A program made the translations under genes and the position numbers. The notes below the pieces were generated by a model that saw nothing but the letters and a program-made list of their open reading frames with translations, was not told the DNA's origin and ran no database searches. This document shows, in pieces, positions 1,887 to 4,444 of a stretch of DNA of 4,444 bases (positions are counted from its first letter, which is position 1; every line of letters begins with the position of its first letter). This DNA is from Escherichia coli (lineage in GTDB: Bacteria > Pseudomonadota > Gammaproteobacteria > Enterobacterales > Enterobacteriaceae). Location: NCBI RefSeq assembly GCF_003334385.1, contig NZ_QOWN01000085.1, one strand, 5' to 3'.

Positions 1887-2165
1887 ATGGCGCACGATAC
1901 CAAATTATACAATTCTGATAATTCAGCCGTCTTTGCCAGCAGGCACGGGCGGCGTTCTCATGCATTCAAATCTGACAGGTTACAGCACGCCCCATGCACT
2001 GAAGAACAGGCCGAATGGCTGATTCAGAACTACCGCAGACGTGGGTATGAGTTTAGGAAAACCCTCAGCCTCGATTATCGTCACTGGATAATCTCCGTCA
2101 GGCTTCCTTACTCTGAACGCCCACCGCGTCCGTCCCGCACATTCCAGCAACGCATCTGGAGGTAA
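1887..2165 (+). CDS. hypothetical basic protein, 92 aa, in the position occupied by rem in the K-12 Qin prophage
   Basis: ATG 1887 is the only ATG in this frame, and the stop TAA 2163-2165 lies 1 nt before the GTG start of the next gene. The RBS is weak and the product is Arg-rich. The TTG-start extension to 1806 falls inside the hok terminator T-tract and is rejected. The rem assignment rests on position only. Confidence 0.4.
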   Translation: MAHDTKLYNSDNSAVFASRHGRRSHAFKSDRLQHAPCTEEQAEWLIQNYRRRGYEFRKTLSLDYRHWIISVRLPYSERPPRPSRTFQQRIWR

Positions 2166-2166
2166 C

Positions 2167-3213
2167 GTGCGGGTATTACTTCGACCTGTTCTGGTACCGG
2201 AACTCGGGCTGGTGATCGTTAAGCCGGGCCGTGAATCCATGCCGGTATTCCACAATACCCGGGTACTGGTGGAGCCGGAACCGAAAAGCATGCGTAATCT
2301 GCCGTCCGGAGTCGTTCCTGCCGTTCGACAGCCGCTGGCAGAGGATAAAACATTACTGCCATTTTTCAGCAACGAACGGGTGATTCGTGCTGCGGGTGGC
2401 GCTGGTGCACTGTCTGACTGGTTATTACGTCACGTGAAATCCTGCCAGTGGCCACACGGTGATTATCATCACAGTGAAACCGTCATACATCGTTACGGTA
2501 CCGGCGCGATGGTGTTGTGCTGGCACTGCGACAACCAGCTGCGTGACCAGACTTCCGAATCACTCGGGCAACTTGCTCACCAAAACCTGTCAGCATGGAT
2601 GATTGACGTCATACGCCATGCAATGAATGGCACGCAGGAGCGGGAATTATCGCTGGCTGAATTATCCTGGTGGGCTGCCTGCAATCAGGTGGCGGACGCG
2701 CTACCGGAGGCAGTATTGCGTCGTTCGCTGGGATTACGTGCGGAAAAAATCCGCCCGGTGTACCGCGAAAGCGACATCATACCGGGAGAACCGACCGCCA
2801 CCAGCATACTGAAGCAGCGCACAAAAAATCTTGCGCCGCTGCCTCACGCCCACCAGCAAAACCCGCCACAGGAAAAGACGGTGGTCAGCATTGCTGTTGA
2901 TCCGGAGTCTCCGGAATCTTTAATGAAGCGACCTAAACGTCGCCGTTGGGTAAATGAGAAATATACGCGCTGGGTAAAGACACAGCCGTGTGCGTGTTGT
3001 GGTAAGCCTGCTGACGATCCGCATCACCTGATTGGTCATGGTCAGGGGGGAATGGGGACAAAGGCCCACGATATTTTCACGCTACCGTTGTGCCGGGAGC
3101 ACCACAACGAACTTCATGCAGACCCGCTGGAGTTTGAGAAAAAGTACGGCTCTCAGATTGAGTTAATTTTTCGTTTTCTTGATCACGCCTTTGCGACTGG
3201 CGTGCTCGGGTAA
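2167..3213 (+). CDS. DUF968-type prophage protein (YdfU-like), 348 aa, with a C-terminal HNH-like zinc-finger nuclease motif
   Basis: GTG 2167 is preceded by GGAGG (2157-2161). The C-terminus reads PCACCGKPADDPHHLIGHG...LPLCREHHNELH, a CxxCG...HH...CxxHH pattern resembling HNH nucleases and lambda NinG/Rap. Size and position match YdfU of Qin as I recall it. Confidence 0.8.
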   Translation: MRVLLRPVLVPELGLVIVKPGRESMPVFHNTRVLVEPEPKSMRNLPSGVVPAVRQPLAEDKTLLPFFSNERVIRAAGGAGALSDWLLRHVKSCQWPHGDYHHSETVIHRYGTGAMVLCWHCDNQLRDQTSESLGQLAHQNLSAWMIDVIRHAMNGTQERELSLAELSWWAACNQVADALPEAVLRRSLGLRAEKIRPVYRESDIIPGEPTATSILKQRTKNLAPLPHAHQQNPPQEKTVVSIAVDPESPESLMKRPKRRRWVNEKYTRWVKTQPCACCGKPADDPHHLIGHGQGGMGTKAHDIFTLPLCREHHNELHADPLEFEKKYGSQIELIFRFLDHAFATGVLG

Positions 3214-3225
3214 AAGAGGTGACTG

Positions 3226-3588
3226 ATGCTCATAGATTTGGTTTTACCTTACCCGCCGACGGTGAACACTTACTGGCGACGCCGTGGCAGCACATATTTT
3301 GTATCAAAAGCCGGGGAGCGTTATCGCCGGGCAGTGGTGCTTATTGTTCGCCAGCAGCGACTGAAATTAAGCCTGTCCGGACGGCTGGCAATAAAAATTA
3401 TTGCAGAGCCACCGGATAAGCGTCGTCGTGACCTGGACAATATTCTGAAAGCACCACTGGATGCGCTGACGCACGTGGGGTTGTTAATGGACGATGAGCA
3501 GTTTGATGAAATCAATATTGTACGTGGCCAGCCAGTATCTGGTGGACGGCTGGAGATAAGAATTACAGAGGTGGGTGTGCATGAATAA
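3226..3588 (+). CDS. rusA: RusA-family Holliday junction resolvase, 120 aa
   Basis: The RBS AAGAGG (3214-3219) precedes the ATG at 3226. The protein carries the conserved RusA core (YPPTVNTYW near the N-terminus, acidic catalytic cluster DKRRRDLDNILKAPLDAL...LMDDEQF, C-terminal GGRLEIRITE), which aligns to E. coli RusA from memory. Confidence 0.88.
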   Translation: MLIDLVLPYPPTVNTYWRRRGSTYFVSKAGERYRRAVVLIVRQQRLKLSLSGRLAIKIIAEPPDKRRRDLDNILKAPLDALTHVGLLMDDEQFDEINIVRGQPVSGGRLEIRITEVGVHE

Positions 3589-4270
3589 CCAGTATTTACA
3601 GTTTGTTCGTGAGCAACTCATGATTGCCACTGCAGATCTCAGTGGGTCGACAAAATGCCAGCTGGAAGCCTGGCAGGAAAATGCCCTGTTCGATACAGGG
3701 CGTTACAGACGCAAAAAAATTCGTTACCGCGATGAGGTAACCGGAAAAATGATCACGCGGGATAATCCCCCGATCCAGGGTAAACAATCACTGGCGAAAG
3801 GCTCATCAATTGCGCTGGTCAGTCCTGTTGAGTTTGCAACATCATCGTGGCGGCGTGCCGTTCTGGAACTGGAAGAACATCAGAAGGCGTGGTTGTTGTG
3901 GTGTTATGGCGGAAACATTTGCTGGGAGCATCAGATCGCGATAACGCAGTGGGTGTGGAGTGAATTTAAAACTCAGTCCGGCTCCAGAAAAATTGCAGTG
4001 AAAACGCTGGAGCGTGTGAAGAAGTTGATCTGGCTGGCGGCACAGGATGTCAGAGGATGGGTTACCGGGTGTGAGGTCTACCAGAGACAGGAGCTTGCCA
4101 GACTGTGTGGAGTTAAGCCTGATAACTGGAGCCATAATTATGCGAACTACTGGCGTGAGATGTGCGATATTTTTAAGCGCCTCGATAGAGAATCCTTGAT
4201 TTGCTCCGTGAAAATAAGAGCGCAACAAAAAGCGACCTTTTCACGACGAGATATTGCAAAAGTCAATTAA
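3581..4270 (+). CDS. putative late-gene antiterminator (Q-like, QuuQ-type), 229 aa
   Basis: ATG 3581 follows GAGGTGG (3568-3574) and overlaps the rusA stop by 8 nt; the ORF track's GTG at 3575 is 2 codons upstream. Its position immediately after rusA and before an intergenic promoter-plus-terminator region is the canonical Q location in lambdoid phages. I cannot confirm the family by motif from memory. Confidence 0.5.
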   Translation: MNNQYLQFVREQLMIATADLSGSTKCQLEAWQENALFDTGRYRRKKIRYRDEVTGKMITRDNPPIQGKQSLAKGSSIALVSPVEFATSSWRRAVLELEEHQKAWLLWCYGGNICWEHQIAITQWVWSEFKTQSGSRKIAVKTLERVKKLIWLAAQDVRGWVTGCEVYQRQELARLCGVKPDNWSHNYANYWREMCDIFKRLDRESLICSVKIRAQQKATFSRRDIAKVN

Positions 4271-4282: not shown

Positions 4283-4331
4283 TCGTATAAATCTGATATT
4301 TTGCCGATTTTGTACGTGATGGCAAAGTAAG

Positions 4332-4359
4332 AAAAAACCACCGCCAGGTGGTTTTTTTT
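4332..4359 (+). terminator. intrinsic terminator (tR'-like), possibly bidirectional
   Basis: An A6 run precedes the stem CCACC/GGTGG with loop GCCA (4338-4351), followed by T8 (4352-4359). The flanking A and T runs could extend the stem and would allow termination in both orientations. Confidence 0.75.
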
Positions 4360-4444
4360 ATGTCCGAAAATCGCGTCAGTACAGTAAACGCGCTGGTGGC
4401 GGTGAATACCTGTCTTTCAGCTTGCTGGCTTTTTCGACAAGAGT
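4360..4444 (+). CDS. 5' end of an ORF beginning immediately after the terminator (MSENRVSTVNALVAVNTCLSACWLFRQE..., partial, first late-region gene?)
   Basis: The ATG at 4360 is open to the window end (28 codons). There is no obvious SD and the start abuts the terminator T-tract, so the call is weak. The hydrophobic stretch could fit a holin-type late gene, but that is speculative. Confidence 0.2.
   Translation, partial: MSENRVSTVNALVAVNTCLSACWLFRQE

Follow-up and report, generated by a model that had tools for sequence, protein, structure and literature searches.

Genetic organization of the locus

The window, a stretch of 4,444 nucleotides of Escherichia coli DNA, carries hokD, ORF92, a DUF968 gene, rusA and Q in this order. 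ORF92 is located in the early region of a lambda-like prophage, between the replication genes and the gene for the Q antiterminator, an interval that corresponds to the nin region of lambda. The features that define ORF92 and its immediate surroundings are:

1788-1815, + strand: intrinsic terminator at the 3' end of the hokD mRNA, identified in a terminator scan as a 7-bp GC-rich stem (1788-1805) and a T run that extends to ~1815
1862-1886, + strand: ORF92 translation initiation region as read from the sequence, with the weak Shine-Dalgarno (SD) sequence AGAGA at 1876-1880, 7 nt before the ATG
1887-2165, + strand: ORF92 coding sequence for a basic protein of 92 amino acids, from the ATG at 1887 to the TAA at 2163-2165, with the same coding sequence called by PGAP
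2167-3213, + strand: DUF968 gene with a GTG start, encoding a YdfU-type His-Me (HNH) nuclease-like protein of 348 amino acids (Pfam DUF968, E-value 3e-75)

The terminator is positioned downstream of the hokD coding sequence (1564-1719) and bounds the ORF92 unit on its upstream side. In the initial annotation, ORF92 was described as an arginine-rich ORF of 92 codons that starts about 70 nt past the hok terminator, has a weak ribosome-binding site (RBS) and is separated from the DUF968 gene by a single nucleotide. This description is borne out in all respects. The coordinates and composition agree with the sequence and the list of ORFs, the ATG is located about 72 nt downstream of the end of the T run (~1815), and in the allele carried by the window only the GAG of AGAGA fits the SD consensus. 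The deduced protein contains 15 arginine residues out of 92 (16.3%), 3 lysine residues and 9 acidic residues, and has a pI of 10.6. The RBS alleles of ORF92 fall into two classes, namely AGAGA in most sequences and GGAG in about 20% of them, including K-12, and the stretch from 1862 to 1886 is less variable than the sequences flanking it.

ORF92 is not a new gene. The RefSeq annotation by NCBI's PGAP places a hypothetical protein, WP_024194157.1, which is identical to the ORF92 product, at the same coordinates in a genome that matches the window at 100% identity over positions 1700-2300. Of 5426 complete E. coli genomes, 4305 (~79%) contain homologous DNA that spans at least 80% of this same interval (1700-2300). 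Tight packing of genes is usual in lambda-like phages and generic in their nin regions. An annotated small prophage gene that is packed in this way is therefore an ordinary finding for a phage early operon. In the Qin prophage of E. coli K-12, the order of genes is hokD, rem, the ORF92 homologue (WP_012304870.1) and ydfU. The curated K-12 gene lists name rem and ydfU, and the ORF92 homologue was not found there. An assignment of this homologue to ynfS was rejected, since ynfS is a gene of 29 codons located between cspF and ydfT.

Comparative evidence for a protein-coding gene

The length of ORF92 is by itself not significant, because spurious ORFs of 128-151 amino acids are present on the opposite strand of the window. 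Conservation of the frame was assessed at 76 loci that had been selected via DUF968 and not via ORF92. A full-length ORF92 frame was present at 74 of these loci, 72 of which have an intact frame of 90 or 92 codons, while one has a longer gene call with the same ATG and one has a GTG start. Of the two remaining loci, one has lost 8 codons without a change of frame, and the other is truncated at its 5' end as a result of recombination. All indels were in frame, and neither a frameshift nor a premature stop was encountered next to the intact DUF968 gene, so that the gene stands in the comparison for which the initial annotation had called. Moreover, the ORF92 frame was the only one of the six possible frames to stay open in all 50 unique homologous sequences, the five others being interrupted by stops in homologues, and ORF92 is therefore more than a chance frame. 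This includes an antisense ORF at 1980-2372, which was rejected as a candidate gene since 31 of the 50 homologues have stops in it.

The pattern of substitutions points in the same direction. The dN/dS ratio was 0.19-0.22 in the ORF92 frame, whereas the remaining two frames of the + strand gave 1.1 and 2.1, and the numbers of variable sites at codon positions 1, 2 and 3 were 28, 30 and 65, respectively. These observations have to be weighed against the view that ORF92 is a chance open frame in the spacer or 5' untranslated region between the hok terminator and DUF968, which annotation pipelines have taken for a gene. The arginine-rich composition, the weak RBS, the absence of a match in Pfam or NCBIfam and the presence of spurious ORFs of similar length elsewhere in the window would all be compatible with such a view, as would the fact that we found no proteomic or ribosome-profiling report for ORF92 in the literature. 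However, a chance frame would not be expected to be kept at 74 of 76 independently ascertained loci with every indel in frame, nor to combine a strong three-base periodicity and a low dN/dS in this one frame only, and a profile search even recovered remote homologues. We therefore regard a chance origin of the frame as highly improbable. Judged from the conserved frame and the purifying selection on its product, ORF92 genuinely encodes a protein of a lambda-like prophage, and the earlier suggestion of a genuine small basic protein is upheld. This means that a very common prophage ORF, which is also present in the Qin prophage of K-12, can be treated as a real gene.

A variable extension and a conserved core of the PHROG 1212 family

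Two parts can be distinguished in the ORF92 protein:

1887-1964, + strand: N-terminal extension (codons 1-26), variable, lineage-specific and predicted to be disordered (pLDDT below 50 for residues 1-23)
1965-2162, + strand: conserved core of 66 amino acids (codons 27-92), supported by the PHROG 1212 alignment, the 66-residue relatives, the AlphaFold2 model and a dN/dS of 0.10-0.13

ORF92 is thus composed of a poorly constrained and probably disordered extension of 26 residues, and a conserved alpha/beta core of 66 residues. The dN/dS ratio was 0.10-0.13 for codons 36-92 of the core and 0.38-0.41 for codons 1-35. The only indels in the extension are in-frame ones of two codons, and no in-frame ATG, GTG or TTG is present between codon 1 and the conserved core. 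The elements predicted for the core are, in this order, a strand, a helix (residues 39-52), two strands (56-60 and 67-71) and a C-terminal helix (84-90), with a pLDDT of about 85 over residues 31-70 in the AlphaFold2 model.

The core belongs to PHROG 1212, a family without a Pfam entry that is found in temperate phages across the Enterobacterales. Residues 27-92 of ORF92 aligned with positions 1-66 of the 66 positions in the PHROG 1212 HMM (E-value 8.4e-34, 116.5 bits), and the relatives of 66 amino acids matched ORF92 positions 28-92 in the profile search. Such relatives were detected by tblastn in annotated phages of Klebsiella, Salmonella, Cronobacter, Erwinia, Hafnia, Yersinia and Edwardsiella. 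Judged by the coordinates of the coding sequence, its length and the junction with DUF968, WP_024194157.1, WP_012304870.1 and phrog_1212 are the same entity as ORF92, and none of these three entries carries a function, a Pfam family or a gene name. Searches of Pfam, NCBIfam and PADLOC gave no match for ORF92 or its relatives; in Pfam this was the case up to an E-value of 10 for ORF92 and 20 family members. A profile search of the PDB sequences returned noise only (E-values of at least 0.28).

Among the relatives that consist of the core only are mEp237 gp51, Salmonella SPN3UB_0061, Cronobacter phiES15_017 and ORF47 of Yersinia phage PY54. They have the same core as ORF92, with the common consensus MKKSWFxH...YRxRG...LPE..PR..R.YQQRIWR, and they are likewise encoded among recombination and nuclease genes before Q. 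Unlike ORF92, they lack the extension of 26 residues, and their identity to ORF92 is about 25-45%. In addition, their genes are usually located after a DUF1367 or NinB-type gene and before a gene for a YbcO-like HNH protein or NinG, and not before DUF968.

Comparison with Rem and the Nin proteins

Like ORF92, Rem is a small prophage protein that is encoded downstream of hokD, and ORF92 had initially been described as rem-like by position. This position in K-12 is the one argument for regarding ORF92 as homologous to Rem of the Qin prophage, or as its equivalent by position. However, K-12 has both genes, with rem and the ORF92 homologue as adjacent but separate genes between hokD and ydfU, and their sequences are unrelated: BLASTP gave no alignment at E-values up to 100, and the family profile scored about -1.7 bits against Rem. 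The comparison with Rem is therefore not tenable, and the probability that ORF92 is its counterpart is close to nil.

A likeness of a more general kind exists with the small Nin proteins of lambda and P22 (NinD, NinE, NinF, NinH, NinX, NinY and NinZ) and with YlcG, which resemble ORF92 in size, in the region where they are encoded and in the tight, overlapping packing of their genes. In the DLP12 prophage, it is ninE that occupies the position equivalent to that of ORF92. A relationship at the sequence level was not detected, since the lambda and P22 Nin proteins each scored about 0 bits against the family profile in hmmsearch.

Gene neighbourhood and possible role of the protein

Members of the family are encoded directly upstream of genes for YbcO-like HNH proteins, NinG, RusA, DUF968 or exonucleases, with gaps of 1-3 nt. 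Because of this constant adjacency and the basic charge of the protein, our best guess, which is a weak one, is that ORF92 could be a nucleic-acid-binding protein or an accessory factor of the phage recombination and nuclease module.

A more specific proposal is that the His-Me finger nuclease encoded next to ORF92, this being DUF968 in the present case and YbcO/DUF1364 in relatives, has in ORF92 a dedicated partner in the form of a subunit, an inhibitor or a specificity factor. Indeed, the gene that comes right after a family member is most often one for a nuclease of the DUF968, YbcO-like or NinG type, and a basic protein would be suited for contacts with nucleic acids. Furthermore, two entries of the AlphaFold database annotated as ybcO and DUF1364, A0A2X2YPE4 and A0A939NUB8 (of 166 and 177 amino acids), align to the small domain and are candidate fusions of this domain to a nuclease, although both of them may be frameshift artefacts. 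A word-indexed search with the family profile for such fusions returned few proteins. What argues against a dedicated partnership is that the next gene is sometimes one for RusA, a cytosine methyltransferase, an Rv2179c-like exonuclease or a protein without an annotated role, and that in Citrobacter phage Chris1 rusA lies between the small gene and DUF968. We consider this proposal unlikely. Its constant adjacency to recombination and nuclease genes and the RBS that is built into its last codons make ORF92 worth considering in studies of small proteins of lambda-like phages.

The ORF92-DUF968 junction

ORF92 and DUF968 meet in the sequence TGG AGG TAA C GTG, where TGGAGG occupies positions 2157-2162, the TAA stop codon 2163-2165, the intervening C 2166 and the GTG start codon 2167-2169. 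Two features are located here:

2158-2162, + strand: SD sequence GGAGG of the DUF968 gene, contained in the two sense codons, TGG AGG, that precede the ORF92 stop, 4 nt before the GTG
2134-2173, + strand: predicted RNA hairpin with the pairings CCCGCAC:GUGCGGG and UUCCAG:CUGGAG, which would sequester the SD sequence and the GTG of DUF968

As originally noted, the stop codon of ORF92 is situated in the SD region of DUF968 and 1 nt before its start; more exactly, it lies between the GGAGG and the GTG. The junction, TGGAGGTAACGTG, was invariant in 70 unique homologous sequences, and throughout the family the terminal TGG-(A/G)GG-stop forms the RBS of the next gene. The GTG start of DUF968 was found at all 76 loci, is also the start called by PGAP, and is consistent with the alignment of PHROG 96 from residue 1 of the protein; the in-frame dN/dS of the first 32 codons was 0.30.

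With a stop close to the next start and an SD sequence inside the upstream ORF, ORF92 and DUF968 display the anatomy of a termination-reinitiation pair, which makes translational coupling between them plausible on the grounds of their sequence. Early rightward transcription that continues past the hok terminator would probably supply the mRNA on which ribosomes start ORF92 at the ATG at 1887 and stop at the TAA, 1 nt ahead of the DUF968 GTG. In free mRNA, the RBS and GTG of DUF968 are predicted to be paired in the hairpin, and translation of ORF92 would therefore unmask the DUF968 start, opening the RBS and handing ribosomes over by termination-reinitiation. Nevertheless, tight spacing is generic in nin regions, and it therefore says little about a specific functional tie between ORF92 and DUF968. 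The downstream partner gene is not constant across the family.

The stems of the predicted hairpin are formed by positions 2134-2140 with 2167-2173 and 2142-2147 with 2156-2161. The segment from 2130 to 2178 (49 nt) has a predicted folding energy of -17.8 kcal/mol with a z-score of -2.28, and 4 of 200 shuffled sequences folded as well. Hardly any variation is seen at synonymous sites of the stems, whereas the third codon position in the loop (2153) varies freely. No compensatory changes were seen in the hairpin among the 70 unique sequences, and two variants break pairs, namely T2143A (10 of 70) and G2173A (6 of 70). Junction hairpins of distant relatives were no better than those of shuffled sequences, so that significance is confined to the E. 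coli DUF968 lineage. A long-range inverted repeat (2003-2015 with 2180-2192) showed only wobble-compatible changes and breaks, and is probably due to chance. Likewise, a programmed +1 frameshift from ORF92 into DUF968 was rejected, since AGG-TAA offers no slippery re-pairing; the DUF968 frame moreover has a stop at 2089-2091 and no earlier start.

Altogether, we judge it probable that ORF92 is best explained as a real gene for a protein with a conserved core, whose translation may be coupled to that of its downstream neighbour, and for which a nucleic-acid-related or accessory role may tentatively be proposed.

Possible Rho-dependent termination within ORF92 and its translation

Part of the ORF92 coding sequence has the composition of a site for Rho loading:

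2060-2150, + strand: candidate Rho loading (rut) site, C-rich and G-poor, with 37-40% C and 17-19% G in windows of 70 nt

The C-richness of this stretch may simply reflect the proline, arginine and serine codons of the conserved peptide. In the Qin prophage of K-12, a zone of very strong Rho-dependent termination has been described upstream of ydfU, where the sequence was treated as untranslated (PMC9160355), which, like the weak RBS, counts against translation of ORF92; the literature on this homologous K-12 locus reports that the ydfU signal is increased in rho and nusG mutants. We infer a link between the stretch at 2060-2150 and the K-12 termination zone.

These data also bear on the possibility, raised initially, that ORF92 is a leader whose translation controls DUF968. 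In its strict form, this would mean that only the act of translation matters, through coupling or through blocking of Rho, and that the peptide has no function. A precedent is the isrK locus of the Salmonella prophage Gifsy-1, where translation of orf45 is required for anrP, and where conservation concerns the nucleotide sequence and the peptide is variable (PMC4825925). As with ORF92, orf45 is a small prophage ORF located past a terminator-like RNA, with a stop that abuts or overlaps the next start. This documented precedent, together with the weak RBS, the gap of 1 nt, the DUF968 SD sequence inside ORF92, the C-rich and G-poor composition at 2060-2150 and the strong Rho-dependent termination upstream of ydfU in K-12 (PMC9160355), favours a leader. 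However, conservation at the two loci is of opposite kinds: in orf45-anrP it is the RNA that is conserved, whereas in ORF92 it is the protein, with a dN/dS of about 0.1 in the core, and the variation falls on third codon positions. Furthermore, the core of 66 residues can be recognized in different genera with 25-45% identity, homologues with as little as about 25-30% identity precede quite different genes, and AlphaFold2 predicts a compact fold with confidence. Control of DUF968 as the main role of ORF92 is therefore not upheld, and a leader without a functional peptide seems very unlikely to us. The ORF92 locus also differs from isrK in that no trans-acting RNA is implicated. The Rfam model of IsrK (RF01394) scored 27.8 bits at 1728-1809, on the 3' end of the hok mRNA, as compared to a gathering score of 50.

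It is conceivable, albeit not likely, that ORF92 acts as a gate for Rho as well as being a gene, with a protein that perhaps modulates neighbouring nucleases. In a lysogen, the weak RBS would then leave the C-rich 3' half of ORF92 untranslated, and Rho would halt stray transcription from hokD or further upstream before it reaches DUF968, rusA and Q, a stop that would guard the host against activation of the late genes. Once the prophage is induced and ORF92 is translated efficiently, Rho would be blocked and the DUF968 start unmasked, and the small protein might additionally modulate neighbouring His-Me finger or recombination nucleases. The gene neighbourhood of ORF92 and the RBS within its last codons bear on the strong silencing of ydfU by Rho in K-12.

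Genomic context of ORF92

The window is part of the early region of a lambda-like E. coli prophage, and ORF92 is an ordinary feature of this early operon. All coordinates of the initial annotation proved correct upon checking of the sequence and the ORF list.

Features of the window
Upstream part: genes for two phage proteins of unknown function (63 aa and 266 aa)
1095-1178 and 1214-1318: two tiny hydrophobic ORFs (27 and 34 aa), 3' of the 266-aa gene
1395-1719: hok/sok type I toxin-antitoxin locus (Rfam sok model at 1395-1569, 117.6 bits)
1564-1719: hokD CDS
1788-1815: hok terminator
1887 (ATG) to 2163-2165 (TAA): ORF92 CDS
2167 (GTG) to 3213: gene for a DUF968/YdfU-type His-Me finger protein
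3226-3588: RusA gene
About 3581-4270: Q antiterminator gene

The start of the 27-aa ORF overlaps the stop of the 266-aa gene as ATGA, and neither of the tiny hydrophobic ORFs has a PHROG match. The hok/sok locus includes a mok-like overlapping frame starting at 1507. For the Q gene there are two candidate starts, GTG 3575 and ATG 3581, both of which overlap the end of rusA. A strong terminator-like hairpin, AAAAAACCACCGCCAGGTGGTTTTTTTT, is located at about 4325-4360, about 60 nt 3' of Q, and, given its position, may be the late-promoter-proximal terminator that is the target of Q.

As noted initially, ORF92 starts after the hok terminator (the ATG lies about 72 nt 3' of the T run) and has a weak ribosome-binding site, the Shine-Dalgarno sequence in this allele being AGAGA, 7 nt 5' of the ATG. 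In about a fifth of the alleles, K-12 among them, this sequence is GGAG. The last two sense codons of ORF92, TGG AGG, make up a GGAGG motif (2158-2162) that is followed by the stop codon, one C and the GTG of the DUF968 gene. The product of 92 aa contains 15 Arg residues (16.3%) and has a pI of 10.6. Exactly the same CDS was called by NCBI's pipeline in a genome that is identical over 1700-2300 (hypothetical protein WP_024194157.1), and 4305 of 5426 complete E. coli genomes contain homologous DNA for at least 80% of 1700-2300.

The view that ORF92 is rem-like by position had to be abandoned, because K-12 has both rem and a separate ORF92 homologue, the gene order in its Qin prophage being hokD, rem, WP_012304870.1 (the 92-aa homologue) and ydfU. 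Unlike K-12, the window has no rem cassette between the hok terminator and the leader of ORF92. ORF92 was also rejected as a relative of Rem, since there is no relationship between Rem and the ORF92 family. The extra cassette with rem in K-12-type alleles measures about 0.4 kb (about 2020-2500 in the Qin locus L002 versus about 1815-1822 in the window).

Coding capacity of ORF92

Fifty unique homologous sequences, in all of which the ORF92 frame is unbroken, were first collected by tblastn with ORF92 itself, and this set is thus biased towards ORF92. To remove this bias, 80 loci were gathered via the DUF968 protein, 76 of which included enough upstream DNA. An intact 90- or 92-aa frame with a TAA 1 nt before the GTG was found in 72 of these 76 loci. 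Of the other four loci, one had a longer gene call with the same ATG inside, one had a GTG start preceded by a good Shine-Dalgarno sequence, and one had lost 8 codons in frame; in the fourth, recombination had left just the final 20 or so codons. Not one of the 76 loci showed a frameshift or premature stop in ORF92, and the search for a disrupted frame beside an intact DUF968 gene therefore did not refute the gene.

The variable sites at codon positions 1, 2 and 3 numbered 28, 30 and 65, respectively. The dN/dS ratio (Nei-Gojobori) of the ORF92 frame was 0.19 for the biased and 0.22 for the unbiased sequences, and that of the remaining two + strand frames was 1.1 and 2.1. All five other frames, including a 130-aa antisense ORF, are interrupted by stops in homologues. 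Judged from these sequence comparisons, ORF92 codes for a protein and is subject to purifying selection. The proposal of a genuine small basic protein is supported by the maintained frame and the low dN/dS in this frame only.

Alternatively, ORF92 could be a leader only, with a peptide that has no role of its own. A model for this is the orf45-anrP pair of the Salmonella Gifsy-1 isrK locus, where the nucleotides of the upstream ORF are conserved but the peptide is not (PMC4825925). ORF92 shows the reverse, namely a conserved peptide, and the leader-only idea is not supported. The isrK-like match at 1728-1809 provides no evidence for an IsrK system: it scored 27.8 bits in Rfam, below the gathering score of 50, and sits on the two hairpins at the 3' end of the hok mRNA.

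The zone upstream of K-12 ydfU has been listed among the strongest Rho-dependent terminators and was treated as untranslated (PMC9160355). In the 3' third of ORF92, C is abundant and G scarce (37-40% C and 17-19% G at 2060-2150), and this stretch coincides with the published termination zone in L002 (PMC9160355). Poor translation of ORF92 owing to the weak ribosome-binding site could expose a putative Rho loading site in the lysogen. The C-richness of 2060-2150 may, however, be a mere by-product of the conserved Pro/Arg/Ser peptide.

The ORF92 protein and its family

Codons 1-35 display dN/dS values of 0.38-0.41 and two-codon in-frame indels, and codons 36-92 values of about 0.10-0.13. In an AlphaFold2 model built from a 24-sequence alignment, residues 1-23 are predicted to be disordered, and a compact core is predicted that comprises a short strand, a helix (39-52), a hairpin (56-60/67-71), an extended Pro/Arg-rich segment and a helix (84-90), with a pLDDT of about 85 for residues 31-70. 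The full 66-position profile of PHROG 1212 (function unknown) aligns to residues 27-92, and a profile search of 1.8 billion representative proteins revealed a family of about 66-aa proteins matching positions 28-92 (consensus MKKSWFxH..T.EQAxELVxRYxxRGVxVEKSL..D...W.VSA.LPE....PR..R.YQQRIWR). These alignments indicate that ORF92 is the 66-aa family core with a 26-aa N-terminal extension. Since there is no in-frame ATG, GTG or TTG between codon 1 and the core, the extension is obligatory in the ORF92 lineage.

ORF92 is a real gene, already annotated, and belongs to a known but uncharacterised phage family. Searches of annotated phages by tblastn and of AFDB50 by Foldseek showed that this family occurs in temperate phages and prophages of many genera, among them Escherichia, Shigella, Klebsiella, Salmonella, Citrobacter, Cronobacter, Erwinia, Pantoea, Hafnia, Yersinia (PY54, N15-like), Edwardsiella, Morganella, Plesiomonas and Hamiltonella. 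Every entry found is labelled 'hypothetical'; Pfam, NCBIfam and PADLOC have no model for the family, and no solved structure was found. The family is unrelated to all named Nin proteins of lambda and P22, and kinship with these was rejected.

The genes are always located 5' of Q, within the early recombination/nuclease cluster. A DUF1367 or NinB-like gene, the small gene, a YbcO-like HNH gene, RusA and Q follow one another in this order in mEp237, a Klebsiella phage and phiES15. The small gene directly precedes NinG in SPN3UB and GF-2, RusA in Chris1 and PHB10, a cytosine methyltransferase gene in an Erwinia phage, an Rv2179c-like exonuclease gene in a metagenomic phage, and a DUF968 gene in another metagenomic contig. 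Its basic charge and the constancy of its gene neighbourhood suggest that the small protein has an accessory, nucleic-acid-associated role in phage recombination/nuclease functions. In the Foldseek search of AFDB, A0A2X2YPE4 (166 aa, Citrobacter koseri) and A0A939NUB8 (177 aa, Klebsiella pneumoniae), annotated ybcO and DUF1364, align to the small domain. These candidate fusions of the small domain to a YbcO/DUF1364 HNH nuclease could be real or frameshift artefacts, and they hint at a link of the small protein to His-Me finger nucleases.

The junction with the DUF968 gene

The 13-nt junction TGGAGGTAACGTG is unchanged in 70 unique sequences. Throughout the family, the gene ends with TGG followed by AGG, GGG, AGA or AAA, with 1-3 nt separating the stop from the start codon of the gene that follows. 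This TGG-based ending is common to the family whether the next gene encodes DUF968, a YbcO-like HNH protein, NinG, RusA or an exonuclease (window 2157-2169; L164, L166, L168-L171 and L174-L177 among the loci of relatives). The small gene thus provides its neighbour with a portable ribosome-binding site. The DUF968 junction of the distant relative L164 (2304-2312) reads TAG-CGG-ATG, whereas that of the E. coli lineage (window 2163-2169) reads TAA-C-GTG and thus has a GTG start and a spacer that is shorter by 2 nt.

A hairpin predicted at the junction in this lineage (-17.8 kcal/mol, z -2.28) would pair CCCGCAC (2134-2140) with GUGCGGG (2167-2173) and UUCCAG (2142-2147) with CUGGAG (2156-2161), thereby burying the DUF968 Shine-Dalgarno sequence and GTG. 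Third-codon positions are almost invariant in the stems, and the third position in the loop, 2153, is highly polymorphic. We consider it likely that ORF92 and DUF968 are coupled by termination-reinitiation. That opening of the predicted hairpin unmasks the DUF968 start is only possible, because no compensatory pairs were seen among the homologues, pair-breaking variants occur (T2143A in 10 of 70 and G2173A in 6 of 70), the synonymous conservation runs past the hairpin into DUF968, and the junction hairpins of distant relatives do not fold better than shuffled sequences.

Lastly, 2003-2015 (ORF92 codons 39-43) and 2180-2192 (DUF968 codons 5-9) form an inverted repeat of 13 nt that is complementary at 12 of 13 positions. 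The number of such repeats expected by chance is about 0.1, and the homologues show both wobble-compatible changes and breaks.
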